Notes: generated by a model not told the origin, from the sequence alone. Positions 11,468-63,568 are shown, counted from the stretch's first letter. The stretch: DNA of 64,000 nt from Candidatus Micrarchaeota archaeon (GCA_021792095.1 JAJYVH010000001.1:445324-509323), one strand, 5' to 3'. Program-made: numbers and translations.

Positions 11468-11480
11468 TTGCCACGATACG

Positions 11481-12632: not shown

Positions 12633-12684
12633 CACAGGAGCGCCGCTTTCGAAAGCATAGCCCTAGCCGCGTATAGCTTATTTA

Positions 12685-14640: not shown

Positions 14641-14677
14641 CCGCTGCCGCATCCGGAGCGCAGTCCGGGTGCAACGG

Positions 14678-18341: not shown

Positions 18342-18429
18342 TGCGACGCTAGACCCGGTACTGCTGCAGGCTGCCGCGCCGGCATGCGGCTTTGCGAGCA
18401 TAGACCAGTACGGCTGGATAAGCATCAAT

Positions 18430-45879: not shown

Positions 45880-47082
45880 ATGGCCGATCAGCCGATCACC
45901 ACCAGTATCGACGATTTGGTCAAGTACGTGCACGAGCACGGCGAGACCGATTCCAGCGCGCTAGCGGTGGCGCTGAGCGTAGGGGAGGCCATAATAGAGA
46001 AATGGGCCGACGTGCTGGAGAAAGCGCAGATAGTGAAGGTGAGCTACAAGCTCGGCAAGATGTTTGTGGCCCCTATGCTCGTCAACCAGGAGGCAGTGGA
46101 ATCCGCCTCGAAGACGGCCGAGCTGAAGAGGGGCATAGTCGAGAGCGAGCTCGCGGCGCAGGTCGACCTGGTCAACCAGATAAACTCGAGGCTTGATGAG
46201 TTCAAGCGCTACGTGGGCGAAGCGGAGAGCGCCTTCAAGTCGAAGGCTGGCACAATAAAGAGCACGATAGACGAGATAGACAGGCTGGGCGCGGAGGCAG
46301 ACAACGCCTACAAGAAGGTATCATCGGAGAAGGAGTACATGGACAAGCTCGGCGCGAACATGGACGCGCAGCTGCGCTCCCTGCAGGAGAAGGCTGCGGC
46401 CGCTGCCGCAGTAGGCGCACCCCAGGATTCGTCGAAGCAGATGGCCGACGACCTTAAGCTCAAGCTGGCGGATTACGAGAACAGGCTGAAGGCACTGGAT
46501 GCGAGCTTCGGCGCAACGCTGAAGCAGAAGAAGCAGGAGTTCGCGGAGCTCTCCGACAGCATAAGGGGAGAGCAGAAGACCATGCACGACATGGTCGACC
46601 AGGAGGAGCGCGCTGTCAAGGAGTACGAGCGCGCCCTGGAGTCGTACAGGCACGATTCCGAGGGCATGAGGAAGCAGGCGGAGCGCGAGCGCAGCAGGAT
46701 AATGGACGACATGGCGAAGTCCGCGGAGGAGGCCAGGAAGGCCTACGACATATCGAGCAGGCAGTCGGCGGAAGTGAGGAAGCAGCTCGACGAGCTGAAG
46801 TCGCGCTTCGGAGGCTACGCTGAGCTGAGCGATAAGCTCAACGACATAAAGAGCAACATAGAGTCTATATCAAGGGAGAAGGAGGAGCTCCGGGCGGAGC
46901 TGACCCAGCTCTCGGAGCAGCTTCGCGCCATATCCGCGCTGGGCGGTTCACAGGCCGGAGACAAGAGCGCGAGGGTCGAGCAGGCGGAAGCGCACGCCGC
47001 GGCCACCTCGAAAAAGGCGCAGAAGCTAGCAGGTGACGTGAAGGACGTCAGGAAGAAGATAGATGGTGTTGCTGGTAAGTGA
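45880..47082 (+). CDS. long coiled-coil protein with N-terminal winged-helix-like domain (pilus locus accessory)
   Basis: 400 aa. The N-terminus is IDDLVKYVHEHGETDSSALAVALSVGEAIIEKWADVLEKAQIVKVSYKLGKMFV. The remainder is heptad-rich and charged. Confidence 0.6.
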   Translation: MADQPITTSIDDLVKYVHEHGETDSSALAVALSVGEAIIEKWADVLEKAQIVKVSYKLGKMFVAPMLVNQEAVESASKTAELKRGIVESELAAQVDLVNQINSRLDEFKRYVGEAESAFKSKAGTIKSTIDEIDRLGAEADNAYKKVSSEKEYMDKLGANMDAQLRSLQEKAAAAAAVGAPQDSSKQMADDLKLKLADYENRLKALDASFGATLKQKKQEFAELSDSIRGEQKTMHDMVDQEERAVKEYERALESYRHDSEGMRKQAERERSRIMDDMAKSAEEARKAYDISSRQSAEVRKQLDELKSRFGGYAELSDKLNDIKSNIESISREKEELRAELTQLSEQLRAISALGGSQAGDKSARVEQAEAHAAATSKKAQKLAGDVKDVRKKIDGVAGK

Positions 47083-48603: not shown

Positions 48604-49197
48604 ATGCCTGCCGACGGCGATTACGAGCGCGCCGCGGAGGTGGCGGATGCCATAGACAGGACGAGCCCGGGCGCCTCGGAGTCGGTGGACGTTGAGGCGG
48701 TGCTTGCCGAAGGGATGAGCACGAGGGAGCTGAGCTACCAGGAGGTGAGCAGGTCGCTGCAGAAGGAGGGCTTCTACACCGAGCCCGTGCAGGAGGCCAG
48801 GCAGCAGGTGCAGGTCGCGGTGCAGGCCGTAAGGAAGCCGGAGCTGGAAGCGGAGAAGAAGCGCGCCGCCTTCAGCCTCAGGAAGGCCACCGTCGGGCTG
48901 GGCGCGGAGTTCGGCAGGGTGATGGAGGAGAGGAAGGAGCAGGCGGAGGAGAAGAGGCTGATAATGCCCAGGCTCTCGCTGCAGGACCAGGTGTCGGACC
49001 TGGGCAAGATAGAGGAAGGGCTGCAGGAGCGCGTGTTCAGCAGCGACCAGATCGCGATAATAGCCGAGGAGCTGCGCTGGCTCAGCGGTGCCGAGGCGCG
49101 CGTGAGCTCGGAGGAGGCCAATCAGGACCAGAAGGTGCTGCTGGCGATAAGGAGCCAGAAGGTAAGGGAGATAAACGGCATGCTGGCAGGCATGTGA
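48604..49197 (+). CDS. acidic hypothetical protein of the pilus locus
   Basis: This internal ATG lies 3 nt after the ATPase stop: MPADGDYERAAEVADAIDRTSPG.... The ORF-track extension to 48331 overlaps the ATPase in another frame and is Arg/Gly-rich noise. Confidence 0.55.
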   Translation: MPADGDYERAAEVADAIDRTSPGASESVDVEAVLAEGMSTRELSYQEVSRSLQKEGFYTEPVQEARQQVQVAVQAVRKPELEAEKKRAAFSLRKATVGLGAEFGRVMEERKEQAEEKRLIMPRLSLQDQVSDLGKIEEGLQERVFSSDQIAIIAEELRWLSGAEARVSSEEANQDQKVLLAIRSQKVREINGMLAGM

Positions 49198-49213: not shown

Positions 49214-50569
49214 ATGGCATTCAACTGGCCAAGCAAGAAACAGAAGACTGCGGCGTCAGACGCGACAAGCAAGGGCCAGATAACTGGCTTCACCAAGCCC
49301 AAAAGGTTCCTGTTCTTCAAGGTCAGGTCAAAGCCCATCTACGGCCCCGCTCCGGGCCAGCAGGTGCAGGGAGCGCAAGGTACAGCCCAGCCGAAGCCCG
49401 TGGTGCAACTGAAGCCAACCGTGCAGCCAAAGCCAGTGGCGCAGCCCGGTCCTTTTGTGCAGCAGAAGCAGCCGCAGGCGGCGCAGCCCGCCCAGGCTCC
49501 GCAGCCGGGGCCTGTCGCCCGAGCGGGGCAGGCCGTGCAGCGCAAGCCTTGGTTTGCGCCGCGACCCAAGCCCATGGCTCAGCCGAGGCCAATCGTGCAG
49601 CCGAGCCCAGCCGTGCAATCGAGCCCTGCTGTGCAACAGCAAAGGCGCGGAGTGATGCGTTTCTTCTCTCTGAAGCCCAAGGTCGCCAGGCCGGAGCAGG
49701 CGGGACCGCAGGTTCGCGGACCTGGCGCCAGGCCCACGCAGCTGCAGATATACCTGGTGAGCACTGCCGCAAGGCACAAGGATCTTGAGGCTGCGCTCAG
49801 GGCCCAGAACATAAAGGAGAGCCCGTACGAGTTCGTGAGGAAGATGTTCGTGTATGCGGTAGCCATCACCGTGGTTGTGACGATTGGGGTGGGGACCGTG
49901 ATGCTGGAGTTCGGCGTGCCCCCTGCGGCGTCGCTGCTGCTCGCGCTGGTGCTGGGCCTTGCCTGCTACATGGCGTTCTTCAACAAGTTCATACGCTACC
50001 CGCTGGACAGGAGCGTAGTGCTAGGCAACGAGATAGAGAAGGACATACTGTTCGCAGCCAGGGACATGGTGATAAGCATGCGCTCTGGCATGCCGCTGTT
50101 CAACGCCATAACCGCGGTGAGCACGGGCTACGGCGCTGCCAGCCTGGAGTTCGCGAAGGTGGTGGAGCTGGTGCAGCTCGGCACGCCCATAGAGCAGGCG
50201 ATAGACCAGGTGAGCGAGAGGAGCAAGTCGAAGACGTTCAAGAGGCTGGCGCTGCAGACTACAGTGAGCCTGAAGGCGGGCGCTGACATAGTGGGCTCGC
50301 TGCAGGGAGTGGTCGACGACGTGATGCAGGAGCGCATCATAGAGCTGAGGCGCTACGGCCAGAGGCTGAACGCCCTGGCCATGTTCTACATGCTCTTCGG
50401 TGTTATCTTCCCGAGCATGGGCATAGCTGTGCTGGCCATACTGACTACGTTCGTGAACATATTCACCGTTGACGAGAACACGCTTATATTCGCGCTAGTG
50501 GGAATATTCTTCCTGCAGGTCGTGTTCCTGAACGTGATGCGAAGCTCGAGGCCCACGTTTGCGATGTGA
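49214..50569 (+). CDS. TadB/FlaJ-like T2SS-F domain membrane protein with N-terminal Pro/Gln-rich repeat extension
   Basis: 451 aa. Roughly residues 40-190 are PKPVVQLKPTVQPKPVAQPGPFVQQKQPQAAQPAQAPQPGP...-type repeats. The rest is a T2SS-F-like domain (DILFAARDMVISMRSGMPLFNAITAV...GTPIEQAIDQV) with TM helices. Confidence 0.75.
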   Translation: MAFNWPSKKQKTAASDATSKGQITGFTKPKRFLFFKVRSKPIYGPAPGQQVQGAQGTAQPKPVVQLKPTVQPKPVAQPGPFVQQKQPQAAQPAQAPQPGPVARAGQAVQRKPWFAPRPKPMAQPRPIVQPSPAVQSSPAVQQQRRGVMRFFSLKPKVARPEQAGPQVRGPGARPTQLQIYLVSTAARHKDLEAALRAQNIKESPYEFVRKMFVYAVAITVVVTIGVGTVMLEFGVPPAASLLLALVLGLACYMAFFNKFIRYPLDRSVVLGNEIEKDILFAARDMVISMRSGMPLFNAITAVSTGYGAASLEFAKVVELVQLGTPIEQAIDQVSERSKSKTFKRLALQTTVSLKAGADIVGSLQGVVDDVMQERIIELRRYGQRLNALAMFYMLFGVIFPSMGIAVLAILTTFVNIFTVDENTLIFALVGIFFLQVVFLNVMRSSRPTFAM

Positions 50570-50573
50570 TGCT

Positions 50574-51566
50574 ATGAAGATAGAGTTTGAGAGGCTTGTC
50601 TCCAGGGGTTTGAGCGAGGCGCTCGCCAGGGAGCTCCAGCTGGCGGGCTGGAAGATGGACATAAGCAGGCTCCTCAGGCTTATGGTAATGGGCGGGCTTG
50701 TGCTGTTCGTGGTCATGTCGTTCGCCCTGACGCTGCTCACCAGCCTCGGCCCGCTTGTTTCAGCCGCAGCAGGAATAGTGGCGGCGATAGTGCTGGAGGT
50801 CTCGGTCTACGCCATGCTGGAGCTCAAGATAGAGCAGAGGAAGGGCTTCGTGGAGTCCATACTGCCCGACTACCTGCAGCTCACCGCGGCCAACGTGAGG
50901 AGCGGCATAGCCATAGACAAGTCGCTGATGCTCGCTGCCAGGCCGGAGTTCGGCTTCTTCAGCGAGGACGTCAAGGTGATAGGCAGGGAGCTCTACGGCG
51001 GCGTGACGCTGCAGCAGAGCATGCGCAACCTCGGCGCCAAGTACAGGAGCCTGCAGCTGCAGCACACGATACGCATGATGTTGGAGGGACTGCAGTACGG
51101 AGGCGGCATGACGGACCTGCTGAACCAGATAGCCAAGGACATAAGGAGCCAGCAGATGGTGCAGAAGGAGGTCAGCGGCCAGATGTTCATGTACACTATA
51201 TTCATAGCGTTCGCTGCGCTGATAGGCGCGCCCGTGCTCTACGCGCTGACATCGCAGATGATAACCGTTACTAACACGGTCTGGGCGGGCATACTGCAGC
51301 AGAATCCTGGCGGACTGCCGACAGCAGGCATATCGTTCCTCAGGCCCAGCCCGCCCAAGATAACCATAGCCGAGTACCACAACTTCGCGCTGGCGGCGGT
51401 GCTGCTTATAACCGCCTTCGCGGCCTTCATCGTGTCGGCCATATCGACAGGCTCTATATACAAGGGCATACGCTACCTGCCTATATTCGTGATCGTGGGG
51501 CTCGGCATATTCTTCCTAATCTCCACGCTGATAGGTGGAATCTTCTCCAGCATAAGCGGCGTGTGA
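50574..51566 (+). CDS. TadC/FlaJ-like T2SS-F domain membrane protein
   Basis: MKIEFERLV...ILPDYLQLTAANVRSGIAIDKSLMLAA...GVTLQQSMRNL plus TM helices. The TTG at 50559 in the ORF track overlaps the upstream gene. Confidence 0.75.
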   Translation: MKIEFERLVSRGLSEALARELQLAGWKMDISRLLRLMVMGGLVLFVVMSFALTLLTSLGPLVSAAAGIVAAIVLEVSVYAMLELKIEQRKGFVESILPDYLQLTAANVRSGIAIDKSLMLAARPEFGFFSEDVKVIGRELYGGVTLQQSMRNLGAKYRSLQLQHTIRMMLEGLQYGGGMTDLLNQIAKDIRSQQMVQKEVSGQMFMYTIFIAFAALIGAPVLYALTSQMITVTNTVWAGILQQNPGGLPTAGISFLRPSPPKITIAEYHNFALAAVLLITAFAAFIVSAISTGSIYKGIRYLPIFVIVGLGIFFLISTLIGGIFSSISGV

Positions 51567-51725: not shown

Positions 51726-54386
51726 CTACTGCGGGGTGAGCAGCCCGAGCGCCTGCCACTCGCTGGCCGTGGTCGAGATGGAAGACAAGCCTGGGGTGTT
51801 GTAGGTGCCGAAGAAGTAGGGATAAGTAACACCTCCTATAGCAACGCCGTTGTTGCCTTGGCCGCTGTAGTCGTTGGCGTTGCCGTTCAGCGGCCACCAA
51901 CCCACAAGATTGCCTGTCAATGGCATGCCTGCGATGCCCTCGTTGTAGAGTTGCTGAATTTGTAACGTTGAGAGCGCTGTGCTGTACATCTGCGCGTCAG
52001 CTACTGTTCCGTTGAAGTATGAAGCGGTGTTCGATCTACTGCCTATATACGCACTGGTACCGGAACCTTGTGGAGATAATACGCCACTGCCTGCTGCGCT
52101 GGCCACTTGTACTCCGTTAATCCATAAGCTTACTGCAGTTCCGTTATACCTGCTGGCTAAGAAGTACCATGTATTGAGTTGTATTGCACTGGCTGCGCTT
52201 TTTGCCTCAGACCAACAATTAGAAGTAGTACATACCCATGTTTCGGCTTCGTTTGTGCCACTGTCGTTAACTGCTATTATAGGATTTACCTCGTTGCCAA
52301 GAGCAGAATCCGCACCCAACACTTCCTGCCTTGAACCACAACAACTACCGATATAGTGCTTCCCTCCATTCCATTTTATCCATACGGTCATAGTGGCCAT
52401 GCTTCCTGTTAGGAGAGGAGAAGCGGTGGTTATAGATATATTGTCGAAGCCGTTGAGGTTGCCTATCTGCATGCTGCCGCTCTGCGCTTCCAGAGGCATG
52501 CTGCCAAGATACAGCTGCGGTATTGTGTTCGAGCCACAGCTGCTGCTCGACGTGCAGCCAAGGATTCCAGGGAGTGGTGCAAGCTTCGTGGGCACGGGCA
52601 CGTTCATTATGCTATCTCTACTGTAGTTCGGCAGCAGAGTGTATACTACGCTTGTGGCAACACCGTTGTTCCCCATTCCACTATAGTCATTGGCGTTGCC
52701 GTTCAGCGGCCACCAGCCCACCAATCCCGCGGTGCTTAGAGGTATGCCAGCGACGCCTTCCTGGTAGAGCCGCTGCACCTGTTGCGTTGAGAGCACGGTG
52801 CTGTACACTTGGGCATTTGCAAGGGAGCCTGTAAAGAAGCGGGTGCTATACGCGCCATCAGATCCTATATACATCGCAGGTGTGGGGGCGATTGCACCTG
52901 CTCCAGTGGATGTTGTGGTTAGACGGCCATCAAGGTAGCAGGATGGCACGCCACTGCTGCTTAGCACTAGGACTGCAAGGTGCCATCCGGTTCCTATGCT
53001 TGTTCCACAGTCTATCCACCGTACGTTTTCGAACAGCACCCACAGTTCATTACCTACATTGTCCCAATTGCTCCCTCCTACGCCTATGCCGTATCCAGAG
53101 CCAGGGGAACCTGTGGAACCCAATTTTACAAAAGCACCGTGATCCGATGTGGAAGGAATATACGCCCATACTGCTACGCTTACTGAGTTTACCGCAGTAG
53201 TAGGAAGTGCTGTAGATACGTTGCTGCTCACACCGTTGAAACTGCCTGCCTGTCTGTTGTAGTTCGAGAAGGTGAAGATGCCGTTTGTGGACTGCCTGTT
53301 GAAATAGGCTTGTGCCCTGTCGAGATAAGAAGGAGTGAACTGTGAAGCGAAGTAGTAGCCGTTAGCAACCGCGTTTCGCAGGTTCTCTATGTTCAGCGTG
53401 TCCAAGCCGGGGCCGTAGAGCAGCGCCTTAGTGCCACTGGGCAGGTCGGCGAGTATGCCGCTGGAACTCGGGTAGATCAGGTAGGGCACAGTAGGCAGCG
53501 TGGTCGGTGCTATGTATGCGATCAGGCCAGCGTAATTGTTCTCGCAGCCTTCCAGGCCAATCGCGTTGTACGTAACGATTATTGTGTTCGAGGCCAGCGG
53601 CGCTGTGGAGAATGCCGTTGGTATTGATGAGCATGAAGCACCACTCGTGCTGCTGCTCGGTAGCCAGTAGGTAGTGCCGTAAGCATATGTTAGAATGTTC
53701 CCGCTGCTGGCATAGGTGTTGCTTATGGTGCTAGTCAGGTTGTTGAGGCTGGAGAAAGTGACAGGCCTGAGGCGTCCTTGCTGCGCGTAGTAGAGGTCCG
53801 GGGTGCCGTTTAGCGGCAGCGATGCGCTTACAGGTATGCTATAATCGTACTTATTTCCCGAGGTGGTGTTGATGCGGAGCCGCATAGTGTATGAGATGCC
53901 TATGTGGTAGGCGTCTGGCTGGAACACACTTGGCACAGTTTCGCTGACGTTGACTGCCCCTGCGATGCCAAGCTGCGATATTATGGATTTGTTGTAGCTC
54001 CCTAGCGTAAGGTTGCCCATCGCGTTCTCAGGGTAGCCGGAGGTGTCGTTCGGCAGCGTGCCGTTCCTCACGAGGCTAGCGAGATAGAGGCTAGTGTTCG
54101 TTATGAAGTTGCCCTTCCTCAGACTCGGCGTTGATTCGTATGTGGCGAGCACTGATATGGCCTTGCCTAGGCTCGCAGCGGCAAAGGAGTCGGTGCTCGA
54201 GTTTATCATCGCACCGTAGTTGCTGGCTATCTCTGCTGTTGCGGTGGCTTGGGCGACGTTGCTAGCGCTTATGTTGAAGAGCACGAGGGCGAAGAGCTCG
54301 GCAAGCATAAGCATGAAGAGGAGCAGCATGAGTATCGTCATAAGCTGTCCTTTGCTGCTCTTATTAAGCGCCTTTGCTAGCTCCAT
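51726..54386 (-). CDS. giant pilin-like surface protein with class III signal peptide and two LamG-type modules
   Basis: 886 aa with N-terminus MELAKALNKSSKGQLMTILMLLLFMLMLAELF. Two junctions of the type ...LSTQQVQRLYQEGVAGIPLSTAGLVGWWPLNGNANDYSGMGNNG and ...LQIQQLYNEGIAGMPLTGNLVGWWPLNGNANDYSGQGNNG are present. The W..L(N/D)G...D.SG.GN.G signature is typical of Laminin_G_3/ConA-like domains. Confidence 0.75.
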   Translation of the reverse strand: MELAKALNKSSKGQLMTILMLLLFMLMLAELFALVLFNISASNVAQATATAEIASNYGAMINSSTDSFAAASLGKAISVLATYESTPSLRKGNFITNTSLYLASLVRNGTLPNDTSGYPENAMGNLTLGSYNKSIISQLGIAGAVNVSETVPSVFQPDAYHIGISYTMRLRINTTSGNKYDYSIPVSASLPLNGTPDLYYAQQGRLRPVTFSSLNNLTSTISNTYASSGNILTYAYGTTYWLPSSSTSGASCSSIPTAFSTAPLASNTIIVTYNAIGLEGCENNYAGLIAYIAPTTLPTVPYLIYPSSSGILADLPSGTKALLYGPGLDTLNIENLRNAVANGYYFASQFTPSYLDRAQAYFNRQSTNGIFTFSNYNRQAGSFNGVSSNVSTALPTTAVNSVSVAVWAYIPSTSDHGAFVKLGSTGSPGSGYGIGVGGSNWDNVGNELWVLFENVRWIDCGTSIGTGWHLAVLVLSSSGVPSCYLDGRLTTTSTGAGAIAPTPAMYIGSDGAYSTRFFTGSLANAQVYSTVLSTQQVQRLYQEGVAGIPLSTAGLVGWWPLNGNANDYSGMGNNGVATSVVYTLLPNYSRDSIMNVPVPTKLAPLPGILGCTSSSSCGSNTIPQLYLGSMPLEAQSGSMQIGNLNGFDNISITTASPLLTGSMATMTVWIKWNGGKHYIGSCCGSRQEVLGADSALGNEVNPIIAVNDSGTNEAETWVCTTSNCWSEAKSAASAIQLNTWYFLASRYNGTAVSLWINGVQVASAAGSGVLSPQGSGTSAYIGSRSNTASYFNGTVADAQMYSTALSTLQIQQLYNEGIAGMPLTGNLVGWWPLNGNANDYSGQGNNGVAIGGVTYPYFFGTYNTPGLSSISTTASEWQALGLLTPQ
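52663..52778 (-). repeat. 116-nt block, 114/116 identical to 59098-59213
   Basis: Aligned by eye, the only differences are ctatagtcat vs ctgtagtcgt. It encodes QRLYQEGVAGIPLSTAGLVGWWPLNGNANDYSGMGNNG in both genes. Confidence 0.85.
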
Positions 54387-56557
54387 GAGTATACGCCTAC
54401 GCTTATTATGTTGCTTACGCCTGTGGTGTAGTTAAGGACTGGCAGAGGAATGCTTGCTTTTGATACCACGTACGAGCCTGCAAAGGCAGGCAAAGTGTAA
54501 GTTGAAGTAGCATATTCAACTCCGCCTACCGCGAAACCAGGATTGGTGCCTGAGTAATCGTTGGCGCCGCCGTTGAGCGGCCACCATGAGATTATGCTGT
54601 CATTGGCCGGGGGCGTGCCCTGCGCTCCTTTTGCGTACAGTTGCTGCACTTGGCTCGGAGAAAGCGCCGTATTATAGACTTGCACGTCGGAAATCATTCC
54701 ATTGAAGTAAGAAACTGGGCTTGATGGGTCCTGAATTCCGATAGCAAACTTCCCAGTTCCGCTAAATATGCCAGAAGAATAAGGAATTGAATTGGAGAGG
54801 GACCCGTCAATATAGATTTTCATATTGTTTCCATTATACACGCCTACAACATTGTACCATGTACTTGGAGAAATTTGATTTGTGCTTATGAGTTCCACCT
54901 GGCTAGTGCTGGATCCGTCGGGACTCAAAAAGAAGTCTATTTTGTTGTCAGAATATACTTGCAGGTAATATTGACGTAAATTACCCAAGGACCACTCCCA
55001 TTTCCCAACTATTCCTTGCTGTACGTTTGCAGCATTTGTTTTTATCCATGCTGAAATAGTTAAAGCAGTTGATGGAGAATTCAACGATGTAGAAGATGCT
55101 GCTTCCACATAACTGCTCGCCCCGTTAAAGCTTGCCGCTTGGACCGTGTTGGTGGAAGGTCGACCAGCGAAGAAGCTGTAGTTGCCGTTCGGGTACAGGC
55201 TGTTGAGCAGCGTCATTCCGCAGCCGGCCTGCGAATTCGTGTACATGGTCGAAATGGCAGAGAGCAGAGTTGCCTGCTGCGGAGCAAAGCACGAACCATA
55301 GGCGAGCACCTCATTGCTTGCTACTACGTAAAGCCTGCCATAAGCCAGAGCCATATATGGGCTTATGGTGCCCTGCAATCCTGCAAACCATTCTAGGTTG
55401 CCTGTGCTCACGTTCTGTGCGGCAAGGCCGTTGGCCCACAGCGTGTATATCATCGAGCCCGTCACCACTGGTGTAGCGTTCGTGAGTGCACTGCCGAAGT
55501 AGCCCGGTGCGGTGTAGCTCCACTCTGTCGTGCTGCCTGTACTGCTCGGCACTATAGCGACATCCCCTCCGTTCGTCTGGTATACTGCATAGCCATTGTA
55601 GTATGCAGTATCAGTGACGCTTTGGCTTATTCCTACCGGGAAGCCCGCTGCCGTAGTGCCGTTGACGTATGTAGCGTTGGCTGAGCTGCCAGAGCCGAAG
55701 AAGAGCCTAAAGTTGGAGCCGACGGGCTTAGTTGGTGCATTGCCAACCGCGAACGCCTTGGAGTACACCTGCTTGGCCGTGTTGCCCGCATGCACTATTA
55801 TGTACAGGCTTCCAGAACTTGTCACTACGGCTATGTCGCCTCCAGCAATGGCGATCGCCACTGGGTTCGTGCCCGTGTAGTTGCTCCAGTATGAGGTGCC
55901 GTTGGAAGTGCGGTAGGAATGCACGTAGGCATCGCTCATCCCGAACACGAGTTGGTTGTCATAAGCTAGGATTGGCGAGGTAAGTGTGGCTCCAGCCGAC
56001 GAGATGGAGTTTGTGCTCCACGCTCTTGCACCAGTCAGCGCACTTACAGCGGTGAGGTTGGTGGTGTTGGCAAAGAAGAGCATGCCGGAGTAGAGCACCG
56101 GTGTTTTGGCCACGTTAGTAATTGTGTTTACGCTCCAGGTCAGCTTGTTTGTAGTGGCGTTGACCGAATAAATTATGTTATTTGCCGCGAAATATATGTT
56201 GCCATAAGCGGCCACGACGCTGGTGGTTATGGTGTTTTGCGGATTGAAGGCGAAATCAAGTATCGGCCTAGTAGGCCCGGAAACACCGCCGCTGTTGGCA
56301 TACGGCCCTCCAAGGAACCCCGGCGATGTCTCGTTGGCGCCCGCGTACTGCGCCATTATGCCCTGCGTTATCCAGCTGCTGTTAGCCACGGAGCTTATGC
56401 TTGTGCTTGCGAGGCTCTCCAGTATCGCCTCCGCATCGGAATAATGGATGGCGGCCGGCGCCTGGGCCGTGTATGTTACGTACAGCAGAACAGATATGCC
56501 TGCTGCCGCTATCACGAGCGCGAAGAGCGCGTCCATCGTGAACACTATGCCTTTCAT
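54377..56557 (-). CDS. pilin-like protein with PQQ/BamB-like beta-propeller and C-terminal LamG module
   Basis: 726 aa with N-terminus MKGIVFTMDALFALVIAAAGISVLLYV. Repeated propeller blades are seen: VVAAYGNIYFAANNIIYSVNATTNKLTWS, TPVLYSGMLFFANTTNLTAVSALTGARAWS, SPILAYDNQLVFGMSDAYVHSYRTSNGTSYWS. A LamG module and the junction IISWWPLNGGANDYSG follow. Confidence 0.7.
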   Translation of the reverse strand: MKGIVFTMDALFALVIAAAGISVLLYVTYTAQAPAAIHYSDAEAILESLASTSISSVANSSWITQGIMAQYAGANETSPGFLGGPYANSGGVSGPTRPILDFAFNPQNTITTSVVAAYGNIYFAANNIIYSVNATTNKLTWSVNTITNVAKTPVLYSGMLFFANTTNLTAVSALTGARAWSTNSISSAGATLTSPILAYDNQLVFGMSDAYVHSYRTSNGTSYWSNYTGTNPVAIAIAGGDIAVVTSSGSLYIIVHAGNTAKQVYSKAFAVGNAPTKPVGSNFRLFFGSGSSANATYVNGTTAAGFPVGISQSVTDTAYYNGYAVYQTNGGDVAIVPSSTGSTTEWSYTAPGYFGSALTNATPVVTGSMIYTLWANGLAAQNVSTGNLEWFAGLQGTISPYMALAYGRLYVVASNEVLAYGSCFAPQQATLLSAISTMYTNSQAGCGMTLLNSLYPNGNYSFFAGRPSTNTVQAASFNGASSYVEAASSTSLNSPSTALTISAWIKTNAANVQQGIVGKWEWSLGNLRQYYLQVYSDNKIDFFLSPDGSSTSQVELISTNQISPSTWYNVVGVYNGNNMKIYIDGSLSNSIPYSSGIFSGTGKFAIGIQDPSSPVSYFNGMISDVQVYNTALSPSQVQQLYAKGAQGTPPANDSIISWWPLNGGANDYSGTNPGFAVGGVEYATSTYTLPAFAGSYVVSKASIPLPVLNYTTGVSNIISVGVYSWS

Positions 56558-57096
56558 CAGCTAACACCGAAGCTCTTGTTCGTCCAGATCATTATCTGCA
56601 CCGTAGCCGGCCTGCCATCAAGCGTTGCCGATTTTGTTGCCGTCTGTATGGCGTACGGATTCTTGTTGAAAGGGTATGAGCCCATAGCAAGCGTTACGTT
56701 GCCAGTGCTTATCACTATGTAGTAATCGTATCCCACACCGATGAGCTGCTTCGTTGCCTGGTAGCTGGTGGAGTTGTGATTAGTCATCGCAGCCAGGGTA
56801 TATATCTTTGCCAGTGATAGCTGGCTCCCGGAGCCGGTGCCGAGGCCTATGCTCACGTTGCTCCATGAGCCTGTGTTGCTTATGTTCACCTGCGAGGCCC
56901 AATCCTGCGGGCTGCCAGGGGTCAGTATCCTGCTCTGCAGGCTCTGTGCCTGCGCCTGCATGTTCTGCAGTCCGAGGCCGTAAGTGCTGGAGAGCTGTCC
57001 GCTCATGCTGGACCACGCAAAGGTGAGCAGCACGAGCGCGGTGCCGAATATCACCATGGCGAATATCACGTCGAAGGACCAGAATTGCGCTTTCAA
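56557..57096 (-). CDS. small pilin-like protein (class III signal peptide)
   Basis: 179 aa with N-terminus MKAQFWSFDVIFAMVIFGTALVLLTFAW. Confidence 0.65.
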   Translation of the reverse strand: MKAQFWSFDVIFAMVIFGTALVLLTFAWSSMSGQLSSTYGLGLQNMQAQAQSLQSRILTPGSPQDWASQVNISNTGSWSNVSIGLGTGSGSQLSLAKIYTLAAMTNHNSTSYQATKQLIGVGYDYYIVISTGNVTLAMGSYPFNKNPYAIQTATKSATLDGRPATVQIMIWTNKSFGVS

Positions 57097-58367
57097 GATT
57101 TTTCACCTCTCGGTATAAAATTTGGCCCTAGCAGTGCACGCAGGACGTTTACTATTTCTATAGGCTCCTTGGGTTGCGCTTTCCTCATTCCACCGTTCCA
57201 GGAGAGTACGTAGCCTCTCTTCTGTCCGAATTTGTTCATGAAGAGAAGCAAGTTATCAGTATCTATGCGGCCGTATTTTACTTCCACAGGAACGCCTGCT
57301 TCGGAAACTATGTCGACTTCGTGTTTGTACGGGTCCCTCCAGAAGAACTCCGCTTCGAGTTCCTTTACTATGAGCCACTCGAACACCCTTGACTTGTAGA
57401 GAGGGTCATCTTTGAACACTAGCGTTGGTGCCAGTATTGCAGGATAGTACTTCTTCAGCTTCCTTTCTGTCTTCCTTCTGTTATTCGAATAGTTGTATAA
57501 TGATAACAGAAGAAATGAGTCGTGCAGGTATGAAATGTAGTTAGATGCGGATTGTCTAGAAATTCCAAAGTCTCTCGCAAGGCCCGTATAATCTAGCATC
57601 TGTCCTGGTTCGTACATAAGCATGTCGAGTATGCCCTTCAGGGCGTCTATATTTTCGATATCGAATACTTCAGGGATATCCCTGTATAGGACCTTTTCCA
57701 CAATGCCCTCGTATATGTATTTGCTTATTGTGAGTTCGTCTTTGGCGTCTATAAGCTCAGGGAAACCCTCTGTCCTGATGTATTCATTGAGCTCCCTTTT
57801 CAGTTCTTTCTCACGTATGAGAATGTTGTCGTATGCTTTGCCCCTGAAACCCAAGAATTCCTTGAAGGAGAGAGGATTCACTTTGAACTCAAACATTCTG
57901 CCGGCGAGGCTCTCCTTGGATTTCTTCCTGATGAAAAGCGATTCGGATCCCGAAACTAGTACCTTCGTGCTACCGGAATACGTGTCATAAATCGATTTTA
58001 CTTGGTTCTCCCACCCAGGCAGCTTCTGCACCTCATCAAGCACGAGCAGGTGCCTGCCTTCCCTCATGCTTTTTCCACTGATGCCCTCGTATTCCTTTAG
58101 TATGTCCCTTACCTCTGCGTCTTTTTTGTCATCAAAGGAGAAATACATCACGCTTTTCGGATCCATACCTGCTTTTATGCTGTCTTCGATAATCTTCATG
58201 AGCAGTGTTGTTTTGCCCACTCTGCGCAAGCCAGTAAGCCCTAGGATCTGCTTCGTGCCCATGAATCTGGTAAGCTGCGCGTATATCGCCCTGTCCTTGA
58301 AGTCCAGACTGAAGTCGCCTTCCCACCAGGGGTTCTTCTCGCGCAGTACGTCAATGATTTCTGCCAT
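57093..58367 (-). CDS. AAA+ ATPase of the AAA_14/DUF4143 (COG1373) family
   Basis: 424 aa with NPWW, ILGLTGLRRVGKTTLL (Walker A), LLVLDEVQKL (Walker B) and a C-terminal DUF4143-like region. It is visibly more AT-rich than its neighbours and overlaps the downstream pilin gene by 4 nt. Confidence 0.8.
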   Translation of the reverse strand: MAEIIDVLREKNPWWEGDFSLDFKDRAIYAQLTRFMGTKQILGLTGLRRVGKTTLLMKIIEDSIKAGMDPKSVMYFSFDDKKDAEVRDILKEYEGISGKSMREGRHLLVLDEVQKLPGWENQVKSIYDTYSGSTKVLVSGSESLFIRKKSKESLAGRMFEFKVNPLSFKEFLGFRGKAYDNILIREKELKRELNEYIRTEGFPELIDAKDELTISKYIYEGIVEKVLYRDIPEVFDIENIDALKGILDMLMYEPGQMLDYTGLARDFGISRQSASNYISYLHDSFLLLSLYNYSNNRRKTERKLKKYYPAILAPTLVFKDDPLYKSRVFEWLIVKELEAEFFWRDPYKHEVDIVSEAGVPVEVKYGRIDTDNLLLFMNKFGQKRGYVLSWNGGMRKAQPKEPIEIVNVLRALLGPNFIPRGEKS

Positions 58368-58460
58368 TCATAACCATCATAAAATCGATTTTACGTTATC
58401 TATGTATAACATTAAATATATAAATACGCGCATCCGAAGTTACGGTGCGTCCCAGCGCCC

Positions 58461-61400
58461 TCATGGCAACCAACTCAAGGGTATTGTGATCTCTGCAGAA
58501 GGTGGGGTCTGAGCGTTGTAGAGTTGCTGGACTTGGCTCGCAGTCAGCGTTGTGTTGTAAAGTTGCACATCTGCCACGGACCCAAGTATGCTTGGACCGC
58601 AATTCCTTCCTATTGTGTAGCCGAGGCTCGTGGGTACGGTGCCCCCTACTGTAGAAGTCGCAGTACCGGCCATCTTGCCGTTCACGTAAGCAATACTATT
58701 TCCGTTTGTTCTGTTGTATGTGATTACTACATACACCCATTGGTCAAGTGGCACAGCGTTATTCACGCTTGCCCAGCCGTCTGTACCTGCAATGTAGCCT
58801 GTTTCCCAATGCAGGCCTGCGTAGCTTGGGGTAGAAGGTTCGTTAGTTATAGAGAAACTGTATGCGCAGTTATTTGCAGGCGAAGTCAGCACGGAGCAGC
58901 AATTTCTTACTACATCCTCTTCTCCTGCGATAGAAGATACATAATACCATGCCGATATGGTAAGTTTTTGCCCTAGCTTGTTGGCCTGCTCTCCAATCAG
59001 CAAGGGGTGTCCAAAAGTTACTCCAGCGCCTCCAAATGTGCTCTGAGAAAGCGGAGGCGCAACTCTCTGTGACGCATACACAACATTCGTAGCCGTGCCG
59101 TTGTTCCCCATTCCACTGTAGTCGTTGGCGTTGCCGTTCAGCGGCCACCAGCCCACCAATCCCGCGGTGCTTAGAGGTATGCCAGCGACGCCTTCCTGGT
59201 AGAGCCGCTGCACTTGGCCGTCAGTTAATGCAGTGTGATATATTTGAACATTGGAAATTGAACCATTGAAATATTCGCCTGGCCCTCCGTAGCTGCCTAT
59301 GGTGGTTGCACCATTTATCGCGAGTGTACCTGCTATTTCGTAGCTGCAAGTCTGTTGCCCGTTAGTATAGCCCTTTAACGTAGAGCCGTCATAGGTCAAA
59401 CCTACCTGTACCCATGTGTTGCGGGGTATGGGCCCATTGTTGCAGTCGTACCAGCTGCCACCTACGTTTACGTAAGTGTCGTAATTATAAGTTCCGCCGC
59501 AGCCTGGCCCTTCTACTGTTCTTATTATCCATCCATTAGACCCACCACCATACTGTGCCATGGCGTCTTGGCATGTTGCGGTATTGCCTTTTTGGTAAAT
59601 CCATCCTATAACTGTGATTGTGTTAACGGCCAAGGTTGGAGGGTTTCCTATGTTGATGTCGCTGCTCACACCGTTGAAACTTCCGGCCAGCAGGCTAGTT
59701 GTGTTGCCATTCAGGTTGGTAGCGGTGGCAGATTTGGTAAAAGTGAGATTGCCGTATATCGTGCCGTTGTTGCCCATTCCGCTGTAGTCGTTGGCGTTTC
59801 CGTTCAGTGGCCACCAACCGATGATATTGCCCGGAAGGATAGGTGCGGCGCCCGTCCCATTTTGGTACAGTGTCCAGATCTGGGAAGGCGTAAGGGCCGC
59901 ATTATAGAACTGCACATTTGCCATTGAGCCATTGTACCAGCTTGTGGACGTGCCAGGTCCGCCTAGACCTTGTCCTACGTTAGTTTTTATACACCCAACG
60001 CTGTTCCCGCTGTATACCTGCACTCCGTCCACGTATGCAAAGGAGTTCGTGCTGTTCGAGCCTGTCACTATGAAAGTCCACTTGTTTTTTGGGCTCGAAG
60101 TAAGAGGTATTTTGACACTAGATTCGCCTCGTGAATTGTTGAAGAGCGCCAGCTGGAGGCCTGTGTCGTTGATGTTTACCTGATCCCACACCTGGGTACC
60201 CCCTGCGTTGTACTCTATGAATACAAAGACCCTTCCCTGCGCTGGGGGTGTATTTCTTTCTTTCACCCACGCCGAGCTTGTGAAACTGCACTGCGTGGTG
60301 CCAAATGGGTTGAGGGCTATTTGTGGTTGGCTAGGGCCCCAGAAGCTTGCGACATAGTTTGGCACATTCCAGTAGCCATAGAAGAGGCGATTGTCGCCTC
60401 CAGTGTAGGCATTGTTATTTCCGCTTAGATCTTGTGTGGTATTGCCCTGCCCGAAGTTGAGTGGATACCAACCTGTAAGGTTTGCAGCGAGCGATGAGTT
60501 GCCGTTGTAGGCTGTTGCCTTGACCAGCGCTTGACCGTTGTTTCCCTGTTGGTTCAGGAAAGCTATGGCTATGCCATTGGAATTCGTATAGTTGTTTGCG
60601 ACGGCATTGTTTCCGATGAAACTGCCCAGTGTTGTCGTGAAGCCCACGAGCGTATTGGCTACCGCAGCGCCTGCCTGGTTTGTCACCTTGGCGAAGAGCT
60701 CCGACACGCTCGGAAAGAGCAGGGGTCCTGTGACAACGCCGTTGTTCCCGTTGCCGCTGTAGTCGTTGGCGTTGCCGTTCAGCGGCCACCAGCCAGTCAG
60801 GTTCTGCTGGTTCACTGGAGCTCCACTTATGCCCTCATTGTATAAGGCGCTTATCTGGTTTGACGAGAGCGCTGTTTCGTATATCTGGACGTTCGCTATC
60901 TCTCCCTGTGTCCAATAGCCATAGCCAGGGCGCAGCGTGCCTATGCTCACATGTCTGGGCCAGATAGGTCCCGCGTTGCCTAGGGTTGAGGAGTTAACGA
61001 TTTGGCCGTTTATATACAGCACACTCGTCGCAGTATGGGCGCTCGGGTTGTATATCGAAGTGGCGGAGAGCATGTACCATGTGTTCGTGTACATCTTTTT
61101 GCTCTTGTCCGTTATCCAAGGGCCGAACGGACTGGCGCCAGCATAATAGCCGGTCCCTTGGTAGTAAGCTGCAAGCTGGAAGCGCCCTGTTCCATTATCG
61201 CACACAATCTCATTGCCCGGAAACGCAGGGAGGTTGATCCAGGCGGAGACTGTAACCTGATTGGTTACGTTGGGACCGGCCAGCGCTATTGTATTGAGCG
61301 CCTGTACTGCGCTCGTCTGGCCGTTGAATAGGGCAGCGTGGGCTGTTTCGCTAGACAGGCTGATGTTGCTCGGTATGCTGCTCGTGTTGGGGCACAGGTA

Positions 61401-61838
61401 GTCTACGCATACCGTGCCGAACGAGTTCTGTATGTACAAGGTGCCGTTCGCGACCGGCAGGCTGTAGTAGAAGCTGTTGGCCTGCAGGTATGACGGGTTG
61501 GAAGCCACCTGCTGCACGCCGCTGTAAGCTATTGCCTGTATGCTCTGCGTGCCCACGCTCGAATTGATGAGCACCGCCCCGTTCTTGCCTATGAGGAGCT
61601 GGTAGCTCAGTGCGCCCACCTGGCTGGATATCGGTATGCTCGCGGTATAGCCGTTGCCAGCCTGCATCGCCAGGCTTAGCTGGCTCGCTATGTTCTGCGC
61701 TGCAAGCTGCTCCTGGCCGAAGAGCTGGTTGCCAAGCGTCTGCGCCCTCTGGCTCGCTATCAGGGAGAAGAGGAAGAGGAAGACTACGAGTACGAAAGCG
61801 AATATTATCATGTACTCCAGTGCTATCTGGAGCCTCAT
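58461..61838 (-). CDS. giant pilin-like surface protein with class III signal peptide and at least four LamG-type modules
   Basis: 1125 aa with N-terminus MRLQIALEYMIIFAFVLVVFLFLF. Junctions are NLTGWWPLNGNANDYSGNGNNG, NLTGWYPLNFGQGNTTQDLSGNNN (degenerate), NIIGWWPLNGNANDYSGMGNNG and GLVGWWPLNGNANDYSGMGNNG. Each is preceded by a VQ(I/F/L)Y.(T/A)AL(S/T)..Q(I/V)..LY motif. Confidence 0.75.
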   Translation of the reverse strand: MRLQIALEYMIIFAFVLVVFLFLFSLIASQRAQTLGNQLFGQEQLAAQNIASQLSLAMQAGNGYTASIPISSQVGALSYQLLIGKNGAVLINSSVGTQSIQAIAYSGVQQVASNPSYLQANSFYYSLPVANGTLYIQNSFGTVCVDYLCPNTSSIPSNISLSSETAHAALFNGQTSAVQALNTIALAGPNVTNQVTVSAWINLPAFPGNEIVCDNGTGRFQLAAYYQGTGYYAGASPFGPWITDKSKKMYTNTWYMLSATSIYNPSAHTATSVLYINGQIVNSSTLGNAGPIWPRHVSIGTLRPGYGYWTQGEIANVQIYETALSSNQISALYNEGISGAPVNQQNLTGWWPLNGNANDYSGNGNNGVVTGPLLFPSVSELFAKVTNQAGAAVANTLVGFTTTLGSFIGNNAVANNYTNSNGIAIAFLNQQGNNGQALVKATAYNGNSSLAANLTGWYPLNFGQGNTTQDLSGNNNAYTGGDNRLFYGYWNVPNYVASFWGPSQPQIALNPFGTTQCSFTSSAWVKERNTPPAQGRVFVFIEYNAGGTQVWDQVNINDTGLQLALFNNSRGESSVKIPLTSSPKNKWTFIVTGSNSTNSFAYVDGVQVYSGNSVGCIKTNVGQGLGGPGTSTSWYNGSMANVQFYNAALTPSQIWTLYQNGTGAAPILPGNIIGWWPLNGNANDYSGMGNNGTIYGNLTFTKSATATNLNGNTTSLLAGSFNGVSSDINIGNPPTLAVNTITVIGWIYQKGNTATCQDAMAQYGGGSNGWIIRTVEGPGCGGTYNYDTYVNVGGSWYDCNNGPIPRNTWVQVGLTYDGSTLKGYTNGQQTCSYEIAGTLAINGATTIGSYGGPGEYFNGSISNVQIYHTALTDGQVQRLYQEGVAGIPLSTAGLVGWWPLNGNANDYSGMGNNGTATNVVYASQRVAPPLSQSTFGGAGVTFGHPLLIGEQANKLGQKLTISAWYYVSSIAGEEDVVRNCCSVLTSPANNCAYSFSITNEPSTPSYAGLHWETGYIAGTDGWASVNNAVPLDQWVYVVITYNRTNGNSIAYVNGKMAGTATSTVGGTVPTSLGYTIGRNCGPSILGSVADVQLYNTTLTASQVQQLYNAQTPPSAEITIPLSWLP
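59098..59213 (-). repeat. 116-nt block, 114/116 identical to 52663-52778
   Basis: See the partner repeat. Flanking sequence diverges immediately on both sides. Confidence 0.85.
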
Positions 61839-61953
61839 CCGTACACCGTGCAGTGCAAATGGCGCATGCTGCTATCCTCTCAAACAAATATTATATGTCT
61901 AATGGAAGCAGGCATATTTATAGCGCGCAGTCCGTCCCTGTGCCGTCTGTGAT

Positions 61954-62445
61954 CTAGACCCTTGAGGACATGTAGACGCATGCCACCGAAGGCTTGCTGG
62001 GGCACGAGGAAGTGGCCGTGACGTTTACCAGGTACGTGCCAGTCGCAGTTATCCCGCCAAGCTGGCCGCTCACGTTCGCTGGCGTGTAGGCGGTGACGTA
62101 GCTCAGCCCCGTCGGCGAGCTTATAACTATTATTATCTCGTGGCCCACGCTGTTGTTCATGTTGCCCACGTAGACGAACCTGACCCCGCTCGGCATCTGT
62201 ATCTGCGCCACCTGCCTGGACGGCGGCCCCTCGCTGCCTATCATAGTGGCAACGCTGGACAGCTTGTTGGCTGCCTGCTGCGCCTCCACAGAGGTGAGGC
62301 TCGTGCTCGCGCTAGCGAGCTGTATGAACGCAAGCACCACGAGCGGCAGCAGTATGGCCAGGCCGAAGGCTAGCGTGACCAGCAGCTCGAAGCTCGACTG
62401 CGCGGCTACGCGCCTACTGCTCTTCGCCATAGTACCTGTCCGCAC
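61954..62445 (-). CDS. small pilin-like protein (class III signal peptide), first gene of the pilin operon
   Basis: 163 aa. The likely start at ATG 62430 gives MAKSSRRVAAQ/SSFELLVTLAFGLAILLPLVVLAFI. It overlaps the 3' end of the CBS gene. Confidence 0.65.
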   Translation of the reverse strand: MRTGTMAKSSRRVAAQSSFELLVTLAFGLAILLPLVVLAFIQLASASTSLTSVEAQQAANKLSSVATMIGSEGPPSRQVAQIQMPSGVRFVYVGNMNNSVGHEIIIVISSPTGLSYVTAYTPANVSGQLGGITATGTYLVNVTATSSCPSKPSVACVYMSSRV

Positions 62446-63568
62446 CCCTCTTGTTGCTTATAAACTCCTCCTTTCGTTCCCTTACCCTGTCGTATATGCT
62501 CTCGATCAGCGACGACACCACGCTCTCCACGCTGTAGCCGTAGGCGTGCGCGAACACGGTGCCCCTCTGCTTCAGCGAGAGCCTCGCGTGCGCCTCGTAG
62601 TTCCGCTCCCTGTGCCTCCTTATGTTCAGCGATACGTAATCGGCCTGCAGGCCCTGGAACCTGTCTATCCTTGACACCAGCCTCTCGGCCTCGTTCCTTA
62701 TCTGCTGCTCATAATCCCTTGTGTACTCGTCCAGGCCAGATATGATCACGTTGCTGCGCGCCCTCGCGGTGAGCGCTGCTGCGTTCTCTATTATGTCGCT
62801 CACAGTGACCATGCCCACCGCCCTGTCCGCCTTTGTGACTATGAGGGACGAGATGTGCTTCTCGAGCAGCCTCTTTATCGCCTCCTCGGCCGGCCTGTCG
62901 TGGCTTATAGTGTATGCGGGCGAACGCATTACGCTGCTTACCTGTATGTTTGCCGGCGTGAAGCTGCGGATCTTCCTCTCCGGCATGCGCTCCTCGGGCT
63001 TCGTCAGGTTGTCAGTTATGTCCTGCGATGTCAGTATGCCCGGTGCGGGCCCGTTGTCTATGACGGCGAGCCTGGCTATGTTGCTCTTCGACATGATGCT
63101 TATCGCCTGCGCCAGGTTGGCGCCAGGGGCTATGGAGACGATTGGTGTGGACATAACGTCGGCCACCTTGAGCTTGGAGAGCATGTGCAGCGAGAGTATT
63201 GCGCTGAGCACCACGCCCCGCCTCACCACGCCCGTTATCCTGCCGCCCTGCATGTACGGCAGCACCTTTGCCGAATGCTGGTGGAAATAGGCTATCAGCT
63301 CGCTCAGCGAAGTTTCCGGGCCCAGCGGCGGCAGCTTCCTGGCGAGCTTGCCTACCGGGAAGCTCTTGGAGAACTTCAGGGGCTGGAGGCTCCTGCTCCT
63401 GGACACGCTCCTGTCGTCCACTATGCCATAGTACTGCCTGTCCTTAAGCACGACCACGGCCCCGAGCCTGCGTATCTTGTCGAGCGCCTCGGTGACTGGC
63501 GTCTTGTAATCCATGAAAAAGGTCTCTGACACGAACTCCTTTGGAAGAGATTCGAAGAGTGCTGGCAT
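62414..63568 (-). CDS. four-CBS-domain protein with C-terminal HPF/RaiA-like alpha-beta domain
   Basis: 384 aa with four CBS-like units (e.g. VADVMSTPIVSIAPGANLAQAISIMSKSNIARLAVID; VSSVMRSPAYTISHDRPAEEAIKRLLEKHISSLIVT). The tail is NVIISGLDEYTRDYEQQIRNEAERLVSRI..ADYVSLNIRR...YEAHARLSLKQRGTVFAHAYGYSVESVVSSLIESIYDRV, which resembles the HPF/YfiA fold pattern. The tail assignment is tentative. Confidence 0.65.
   Translation of the reverse strand: MPALFESLPKEFVSETFFMDYKTPVTEALDKIRRLGAVVVLKDRQYYGIVDDRSVSRSRSLQPLKFSKSFPVGKLARKLPPLGPETSLSELIAYFHQHSAKVLPYMQGGRITGVVRRGVVLSAILSLHMLSKLKVADVMSTPIVSIAPGANLAQAISIMSKSNIARLAVIDNGPAPGILTSQDITDNLTKPEERMPERKIRSFTPANIQVSSVMRSPAYTISHDRPAEEAIKRLLEKHISSLIVTKADRAVGMVTVSDIIENAAALTARARSNVIISGLDEYTRDYEQQIRNEAERLVSRIDRFQGLQADYVSLNIRRHRERNYEAHARLSLKQRGTVFAHAYGYSVESVVSSLIESIYDRVRERKEEFISNKRGADRYYGEEQ

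Follow-up and report, generated by a model that had tools for sequence, protein, structure and literature searches.

How DPANN archaea recognize and attach to their hosts is an open question, for which there are very few molecular candidates. The question is raised in concrete form by a 64-kb stretch of the genome of a Candidatus Micrarchaeota archaeon, a tiny symbiotic member of DPANN (JAJYVH010000001.1:445324-509323, GC content 57%; hereafter the window), where positions 51726-62445 encode, beside the genes of a type IV filament motor, very large proteins with lectin-type domains. Are these proteins parts of the filament itself? The best explanation of the data described below is that this region constitutes an operon for the subunits of a type IV filament system in Micrarchaeota, and that three of its proteins are modular, each combining a pilin-like carrier with effector domains. 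On balance, we consider it probable that the operon encodes a set of minor or tip pilin-like subunits which would display arrays of lectin domains on the filament.

Six minus-strand genes, designated A163, B1125, C424, D179, E726 and F886, occupy the interval (Table 1). An earlier reading of the same DNA (the original prediction) had described a five-gene operon, and its five open reading frames (ORFs), of 163, 1125, 179, 726 and 886 amino acids (aa), were all located exactly where it had placed them. Its gene count needs correction as it had overlooked C424, which lies between B1125 and D179. The original prediction also had the genes converging on an FlaI/PilB-like ATPase and TadB/TadC-like genes, and this proved accurate, with Pfam matches to T2SSE in the ATPase and to T2SSF in two plus-strand genes. 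The second of the T2SSF genes ends at 51566 and F886 stops at 51726. Coupling within the operon is tight: D179 and E726 overlap by 1 nucleotide (nt), E726 and F886 overlap by 10 nt, and B overlaps D in relatives.

The evidence that carries the pilin assignment lies at the N-termini. All five proteins had been predicted to start with a short basic leader and then a hydrophobic helix, and each does begin with such a leader and a hydrophobic stretch; in these proteins and their orthologs the charges stand directly before a hydrophobic stretch of about 20 aa. With a slash marking the putative cleavage site, the family signatures are [KR]x/QSSFELL in A, [KR]x/Q[ILV][AS][LIF][ED][YF]M in B, K[AL]/QFWSFD in D, K[GA]/[IF]VFTxDA in E and KG/[QI]LMTL in F. 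Glutamine is found at +1 in A, B, D and most F orthologs, Glu or Asp at +5 in A and B, and Tyr or Phe at +6 in B, whose motif extends across more than 100 orthologs. Family D has its acidic residue, Asp, at +6, and E and F have no acidic residue at +5. Positions -2 and -1 are mostly Lys followed by Gly or Ala in D, E and F (K-A/Q, K-G/I and K-G/Q, respectively). In the EppA-processed Epd pilins of Methanococcus, Gln is at +1, Glu is at +5 and the signal peptides end in Gly, and Tyr at +6 is a mark of Flp pilins (PMC3875500). The Q+1/E+5 feature is therefore seen in A (QSSFE) and B (Q[ILV][AS][LIF][ED]). In addition, the first 25 residues past the putative cleavage site are highly conserved (0.63-0.89, versus 0.45-0.76 for the remainder of the proteins). 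Sec signal peptides are not conserved in sequence, and the opposite behavior of these N-termini therefore counts in favor of a pilin nature.

Structure prediction agreed with this assignment for the largest protein. The AlphaFold model of B aa 1-170, made with 37 aligned sequences, has a continuous 59-residue helix (residues 2-60) and seven strands (predicted local distance difference test, pLDDT, 84.5), which is the general layout of a type IV pilin, and C144 and C149 are invariant in the alignment of this carrier module. A long helix with a beta head was thus found in B aa 1-170, and in part in E726. The B carrier module was recovered in 227 cluster representatives by an exhaustive HMMER search, always at the N-terminus and mostly in proteins of ~880-1150 aa; the N-terminal 170 aa alone found nothing in a word-indexed database, whereas the full-length search and the exhaustive HMMER search succeeded. 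Together, the sequence and modeling data indirectly support the five proteins being pilin-like, with cleavage by a prepilin peptidase putative. A further ORF of 174 aa, 46 kb from the operon, has an Epd/Flp-like N-terminus and no Pfam match, and is a candidate for the major pilin.

The effector portions of the three large proteins were identified with more certainty. Laminin_G_3 (LamG; PF13385, gathering cut-off 27.6 bits) was matched by B1125 in four stretches (E=9.6e-60, 201.5 bits), by E726 (3.8e-28, 99.0 bits) and by F886 in two stretches (4.4e-31, 108.5 bits), and the corresponding region of the E726 model (aa 460-628) is all-beta, bearing out the ConA-like modules of the original prediction. 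The bodies of the modules are mutually only 23-44% identical, whereas the junctions between them are almost the same. In F886, LamG1 spans aa 367-554 and LamG2 aa 556-826. In B1125, the W motif after the first LamG is followed by an immunoglobulin (Ig)-like segment, for which PF02369 (Big_1) is precomputed in several orthologs, and then by the three other LamG modules. The PQQ/BamB-like propeller that had been proposed for the 726-aa protein was found by Pfam (PQQ_2, E=5.6e-15, 56.1 bits versus a cut-off of 27.6), and AlphaFold and Foldseek agree. In the E726 model (pLDDT 81, predicted template modeling score 0.77), aa 100-420 form an 8-bladed propeller, which a helical connector joins to an all-beta LamG at about aa 460-643 (aa 455-654 in the sequence map), and a beta-rich conserved tail follows. 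The propeller matched BamB structures with E about 1e-16 and template modeling (TM) scores to the target of 0.65-0.78. N-glycosylation sequons occur at 1.8-2.8 per 100 aa in the five proteins, whereas the cytoplasmic and membrane proteins of the locus have 0-0.8, a density that is consistent with extracellular exposure of five putative glycoproteins.

The arrangement is not a peculiarity of one genome. Species-representative genomes were scanned with the second platform protein, which identified 17 loci (52-84% identity), the named ones being Micrarchaeota or Micrarchaeia metagenome-assembled genomes (MAGs) and one being labeled Marsarchaeota. In at least 11 of the 17, the platform genes are immediately followed by F, E, D, B and A in that order. 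The conserved block, found in at least 11 species-level genomes, comprises the coiled-coil protein, the ATPase, a small protein and the two T2SSF genes, with F-E-D-B-A-CBS converging on them. The coiled-coil protein, the ATPase and the 197-aa protein are kept in 16-17 loci, and D179 and A163 are syntenic in 12 and 8 related loci, respectively. Two loci, L009 and L012 (positions ~11000-15600), have D, B and A and are missing E and F; therefore the propeller protein E and the 886-aa lectin protein F are dispensable in some lineages. Full-length orthologs number 34 for E726 and more than 100, of about 1100 aa, for B1125, with the named B1125 orthologs coming from Micrarchaeota or Marsarchaeota MAGs. 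The labels that B1125 and E726 orthologs bear are "hypothetical", "LamG domain-containing" and "PQQ-binding-like beta-propeller repeat protein".

The machinery opposite the operon points to a particular type of system. Against NCBIfam models, the ATPase scored 259.6 bits for FlaI and 171.7 bits for TadA, both below cut-off. The two adjacent platform genes, each with one T2SSF domain, are conserved in the 17 loci. Judged by its ATPase and the two single-domain platform genes, the locus would belong to the archaeal clade 1/system 1 (Epd/Tad-like) type. Ahead of its T2SSF domain, platform protein 1 has an N-terminal extension (49214-49830, plus strand) with a high content of P, Q, K, V and A and with repeated QPKP/VQP-like units.

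If these assignments are correct, a prepilin peptidase encoded elsewhere would remove the leaders, and the ATPase and platform proteins would extract the helices from the membrane. The helices of the five proteins would then hold them together as a minor-pilin or tip complex, underneath which a small major pilin, possibly the product of the gene at 5089-5613, would polymerize. The lectin-type domains, held away from the cell in this way, could bind glycans or glycoproteins, plausibly on a wall-less Thermoplasmatales host. The three LamG giants are good, although unproven, candidates for a host-gripping device.

Several observations weigh against these proteins being processed filament subunits. 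The residue at -1 in most A and B orthologs is Leu (A, G, S, N or I in the others), which is not a canonical prepilin peptidase site. The class III (prepilin-type) signal of the original prediction stands as regards the charged leader, Q at +1 and the conservation of the N-termini, and falls short at the threshold of Pfam Class_IIIsignal (PF04021), whose best whole-protein score was 13.9 bits versus a gathering cut-off of 23.7 (E=0.055 in B). This model is only 27 positions long; it was matched at E<=1 by 6 of 50 N-termini (best 0.014) and is the sole Pfam family to recur among them. When the N-terminal model of B was compared with the PDB by Foldseek, no solved pilin and no match below E=0.2 came up, and profiles of families A and D retrieved nothing meaningful from PDB sequences. 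In the E726 model the N-terminal helix is of ~24 residues (3-26) and is followed by further helices, with no pilin-type sheet. Within the 64-kb window, no Peptidase_A24 gene was found: a regular-expression search for the GxGD motif gave nothing plausible, and, of three candidates with multiple transmembrane (TM) segments from a hydropathy screen, Pfam identified one as Peptidase_M50 and matched nothing in the other two. Neither an EppA peptidase nor a FleN/MinD ATPase gene, both of which are common although not universal in clade 1 loci, was found in the conserved 11-gene block; the related Candidatus Mancarchaeum acidiphilum Mia14 has a single FlaK-like peptidase, encoded outside the pilus locus (PMC5498576). 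Finally, the role as a tip adhesin in host attachment, and the ligand, are entirely our inference.

One reading of such negatives is that the N-termini are uncleaved signal anchors or Sec signals, and that the proteins are ordinary membrane-anchored surface lectins merely located, or regulated, together with the pilus genes. The Leu at -1, the sub-threshold Class_IIIsignal matches and the want of a structural match to solved pilins are what this reading would expect, and export by Sec is the usual assumption for DPANN LamG proteins (PMC9563170). Yet the N-termini do not behave as Sec signals do, being among the most conserved parts of the proteins, with Q+1 and E/D+5 nearly invariant among the B orthologs, with charges that adjoin the hydrophobic stretch and with no conserved AxA-type site downstream. 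The length of the continuous helix predicted for B, and a five-gene operon fixed beside the machinery in so many genomes, also argue against simple co-location, and we regard this reading as distinctly unlikely. The idea that the ConA-like modules are catalytic (glucanase/GH16-like or sialidase-like), and the proteins secreted enzymes that degrade polysaccharides, draws on the glucanases of the ConA-like superfamily, on a weak match to a sialidase N-terminal domain (E=0.0016) and on the propeller-then-lectin order of E726, which recalls trans-sialidases (1ms9 was at rank 45 in Foldseek). The significant matches were nevertheless all to non-catalytic binding families (Laminin_G_3, Pentaxin and Toxin_R_bind_N), the sialidase match was confined to the lectin-like N-terminal domain, and the propeller is BamB/PQQ-like and not a 6-bladed sialidase (TM scores of 0.20-0.23 to 1ms9). 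On the strength of the binding families and the propeller fold this reading, which is very improbable, was set aside.

A closer relative of the interpretation we prefer accepts the class III signals and the use of the ATPase and platform proteins, and proposes a bindosome-like structure or pseudopilus, that is, a short, cell-proximal assembly that would keep carbohydrate-binding proteins in the envelope for substrate capture or envelope organization, in place of tip adhesins on a long pilus. The Sulfolobus bindosome, with its large binding proteins bearing class III signals, is a precedent (PMC3875500, PMC4858521), and the operon has five pilin-like genes with no obvious small major pilin among them and an E726 that does not have the head domain typical of pilins. 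A match of the ATPase to the BasE model is a further point, but at 138 bits it is weaker than those to FlaI and TadA and far below cut-off. The stand-alone pilin-like gene at 5089-5613 speaks for a filament instead, as do the split platform genes and the Q+1/E+5 pattern, which point to the Epd/Tad-like type that makes real pili in Methanococcus (PMC3875500, PMC4858521). We consider a bindosome-like structure unlikely, and retain a filament bearing the five proteins as minor or tip subunits as our preferred interpretation.

The LamG modules of these proteins are joined by a stereotyped junction centered on a W[WY]PLN motif, of which there are exactly seven copies (B350, B457, which is degenerate with WYPLNF, B675, B897, E658, F558 and F830) and none elsewhere in the 64-kb window. 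The original prediction had counted seven junctions, one of them degenerate, with two, one and four per gene, and the count is correct, there being four in B1125, one in E726 and two in F886. It had also described each junction as a module end followed by the start of the next module. The motifs themselves were confirmed, but a further LamG does not always follow, there being three exceptions among the seven. A full LamG follows only four of the motifs; B350 is succeeded by ~105 aa that include the Ig-like segment, and E658 and F830 by short C-terminal tails. The motif at B457 comes after the Ig-like segment and not after a LamG end, and no motif precedes the first LamG in any of the proteins. 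The upstream half of the junction, VQ.Y..aLs..Q...LY, corresponds to the C-terminal strand and helix that are conserved in LamG_3, and the downstream half, W.L.G...DYSG.GNNG, resembles the usual N-terminal signature of LamG_3-type domains. As B1125 (58461-58480) and nearly all B orthologs end in PL[SG]W.P (...PPSAS..[IV]PL[SG]W.P-COOH in about 36 of the 40 shown), we conclude that a W-x-P strand comes after every LamG, even the last. The junction is therefore the C-terminal strand and helix of LamG_3 plus this strand, with no special linker, and a junction that precedes a further module also holds the LamG_3 N-terminal signature, L.G.a.DYSG.GNNG. The C-terminal tails that follow the last W motif are of 69 aa in E726 (54380-54592) and 57 aa in F886 (51729-51905). 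Neither matched any family, although 32 E orthologs all have W658, P660, Y668, N709 and W725. The possibility that the tails are truncated LamG modules found no support beyond the motif, as a custom LamG hidden Markov model aligned only its first 26-35 positions, i.e., the motif itself.

At the DNA level, five copies of the motif form a 69-nt family with 77-100% identity, a repetition far beyond chance. Junction repeats of this kind could also mislead short-read assemblers. Concerted evolution was rejected as the general cause of the stereotypy: over seven genomes, mean junction identity was 0.42 between paralogs within a genome, 0.45 between genomes at the same position and 0.41 for other pairs, with isolated conversions only (B/F in the window, and junctions in L008). 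Since similarity among junctions is much the same between and within genomes, the stereotypy appears to result mainly from purifying selection on a structural consensus. The B/F case concerns the junctions of F LamG1 to LamG2 and B LamG3 to LamG4, which have 37 identical aa in common. Their DNA is 91% identical over 140 nt, with a core of ~90 nt (52670-52759) that is 93-100% identical and flanks at the random level, and we interpret it as a gene-conversion tract. In the closest relative, L001, whose machinery proteins are mostly 84-89% identical to those of the window, the gene at the F position (6881-10074, minus strand) encodes at least 1063 aa up to the contig end and has a B-like body, with two Ig-like segments and at least four LamG modules, and an F-type C-terminal tail; this represents either module shuffling between paralogs or MAG misassembly over the repeats. 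Because the junction DNA is repeated, it would be able to serve as a recombination site between genes. The B/F tract and the divergent L001 architecture are suggestive of a bolder scenario, in which the five-protein set is a host-recognition tip whose LamG arrays and propeller bind the glycocalyx of a wall-less Thermoplasmatales host, and in which the junction DNA is a cassette for recombination by which modules are shuffled, duplicated or deleted among the three genes, so that host specificity varies between close strains. We regard this scenario as doubtful.

Table 1. Coordinates of the genes and sequence features discussed, numbered from the first nucleotide of the window; a slash marks the putative cleavage site.
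Feature	Position	Strand	Description
A163	61954..62445	-	small pilin-like protein; leader ...RRVAA, then invariant QSSFELL.T...GLA.LLP; two invariant C-terminal Cys
B1125	58461..61838	-	pilin-like N-terminal module, LamG1, W motif + Ig-like segment, LamG2, LamG3, LamG4; C-terminus ...PLSWLP
B1125 aa 1-150, carrier module	61389..61838	-	MRL/QIALEYM...; predicted helix 2-60, 7 beta strands, invariant C144/C149
B1125 aa 348-453	60480..60797	-	WWPLNGNANDYSG motif, then Ig-like segment (Big_1-type in orthologs), no LamG
B junction LamG3-to-LamG4	59077..59216	-	putative conversion-tract partner of the F junction
C424	57093..58367	-	AAA_14+DUF4143 ATPase between B and D (Pfam)
D179	56557..57096	-	small pilin-like protein, MKA/QFWSFDVIFA...; Q4, W6, S7 and D9 invariant
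E726	54377..56557	-	MKG/IVFTMDALFAL helix, helical linker, 8-bladed propeller, LamG, W motif, conserved 69-aa tail
F886	51726..54386	-	...SKG/QLMTIL helix, ~350 aa unannotated, LamG1, LamG2, W motif, 57-aa tail
F junction LamG1-to-LamG2	52642..52781	-	near-identical DNA tract in common with the B junction
CBS-domain protein	62414..63568	-	stop overlaps A163 start; syntenic upstream of A in 8 loci
400-aa coiled-coil protein	45880..47082	+	overlaps ATPase start; syntenic accessory gene
Type IV filament assembly ATPase, 512 aa	47063..48601	+	FlaI/TadA-like; Pfam T2SSE 3.1e-34
197-aa acidic protein	48604..49197	+	between ATPase and platform genes; syntenic accessory gene
Platform protein 1	49214..50569	+	single T2SSF domain (Pfam); P/Q-rich N-terminal extension of ~200 aa
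Platform protein 2	50559..51566	+	single T2SSF domain (Pfam); found in 17 related loci
Stand-alone pilin-like ORF, 174 aa	5089..5613	-	RTRKA/QSAMEYLMTYGWAIL; candidate major pilin

The sixth gene of the interval, C424, is an insertion that lies outside the conserved operon, as it is absent from every related locus surveyed, where the stop of B overlaps the start of D, and its GC content is low (0.46 versus 0.52-0.62 in its neighbors). It is accompanied between B1125 and D179 (57093-58460) by an AT-rich spacer of 93 nt (GC 0.38), and there is a 4-nt overlap between the stop of C424 and the TTG start of D179. Its 424-aa product does not have a pilin-like N-terminus and matches the PADLOC candidate defense family PDC-S01 (E=3.4e-61). 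Elsewhere in the window, six consecutive distant paralogs on the plus strand (17088-24743) have 7-9 TM segments each in a simple hydropathy scan; most have a hydrophobic, signal-like N-terminus, and none has a Pfam match.

That LamG genes are linked to this type of pilus locus was already known from Mia14 (PMC5498576). The present analysis adds that the LamG giants themselves appear, from their sequences, to carry conserved pilin-type N-termini, that they belong to a five-gene set fixed across the phylum, and a definition of their module map and the nature of the junction. The operon thereby offers phylum-wide, testable candidates for host recognition: five conserved pilin-like proteins, three with lectin-type arrays, encoded beside a pilus motor. 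If these proteins are processed and displayed on a pilus, the "modular pilin" principle, documented so far for bacteria, would extend to archaea, and in an extreme version in which a single pilin carries as many as four lectin modules, and the known expansion of LamG genes in Micrarchaeota would be explained. If they are not processed, a conserved surface-lectin operon has still been defined. Current database names such as "PQQ-binding-like beta-propeller repeat protein", "outer membrane protein assembly factor BamB" and "hypothetical protein" can also be corrected.

Among known systems, the clade 1/Epd loci, such as that of Methanococcus maripaludis, are the nearest in organization. These loci have two TadC genes and encode large ConA-like (DUF2341) proteins that have been proposed as tip adhesins (PMC4858521; also 10.64898/2026.04.22.720090). 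The Micrarchaeota locus is similar in having an ATPase with two separate TadC-like platform genes, several pilin-like genes with Q+1 and E+5 and large proteins of ConA-like fold, and in that the major pilin is probably encoded elsewhere. It differs in that the arrays are of Laminin_G_3 rather than DUF2341 (PF10102 was found in only one ortholog), in that the large proteins themselves bear a pilin-type N-terminus, and in that the window yielded neither an EppA nor a FleN/MinD gene. The residue at -1 is often Leu here and Gly there, and the B family, with Y or F at +6, is like bacterial Flp pilins in this respect. A closer counterpart by lineage is Mia14, whose type IV pili locus (MIA14_0170-0177) is of the same type and whose LamG genes have expanded, "some of them linked to type IV pili loci", with a role in host interaction proposed; the pilin-like nature and module architecture of the LamG proteins are not described in the available portion of that report (PMC5498576). 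The window comes from a different genome of much higher GC content, and the likeness is one of locus type.

Outside this locus type the resemblances are to individual proteins. TafC of the haloarchaeal Tat-fimbriae has a LamG-type domain in an archaeal filament subunit, but is exported by Tat and assembled with no type IV machinery (PMC11821415). The NF052521 model of this family matched the three giants in the LamG region only, at 70.2, 36.4 and 43.0 bits against a cut-off of 410, and membership was rejected. In the PilY1/PilC tip adhesin of type IVa pili, a large beta-propeller adhesin is combined with a minor pilin set, which makes it a functional analog of E726. PilY1 is not a pilin and has a propeller family of its own, whereas E726 matches PQQ_2/BamB-type 8-bladed propellers and has a pilin-like N-terminus, and no PilY1-family Pfam match was obtained at E<=0.01, so that membership of this family was rejected too. 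The bacterial modular type IV pilins, exemplified by PilB (vWA) and PilC (ConA-like lectin) of Streptococcus sanguinis (PMC8179133), carry the class III motif IPR012902 (G at -1, E at +5) where the Micrarchaeota proteins have an archaeal Epd-like motif, and homology between the carrier modules was undetectable when the B N-terminal model was compared with the PDB by Foldseek. The Micrarchaeota proteins also go further in number, with up to four lectin modules per pilin and three such proteins in one operon. The two groups are alike in design: a small N-terminal pilin carrier is fused to binding modules that include a ConA-like lectin, and the bacterial proteins of this kind, in which a module may be repeated many times, are believed to sit at the pilus tip (PMC8179133).

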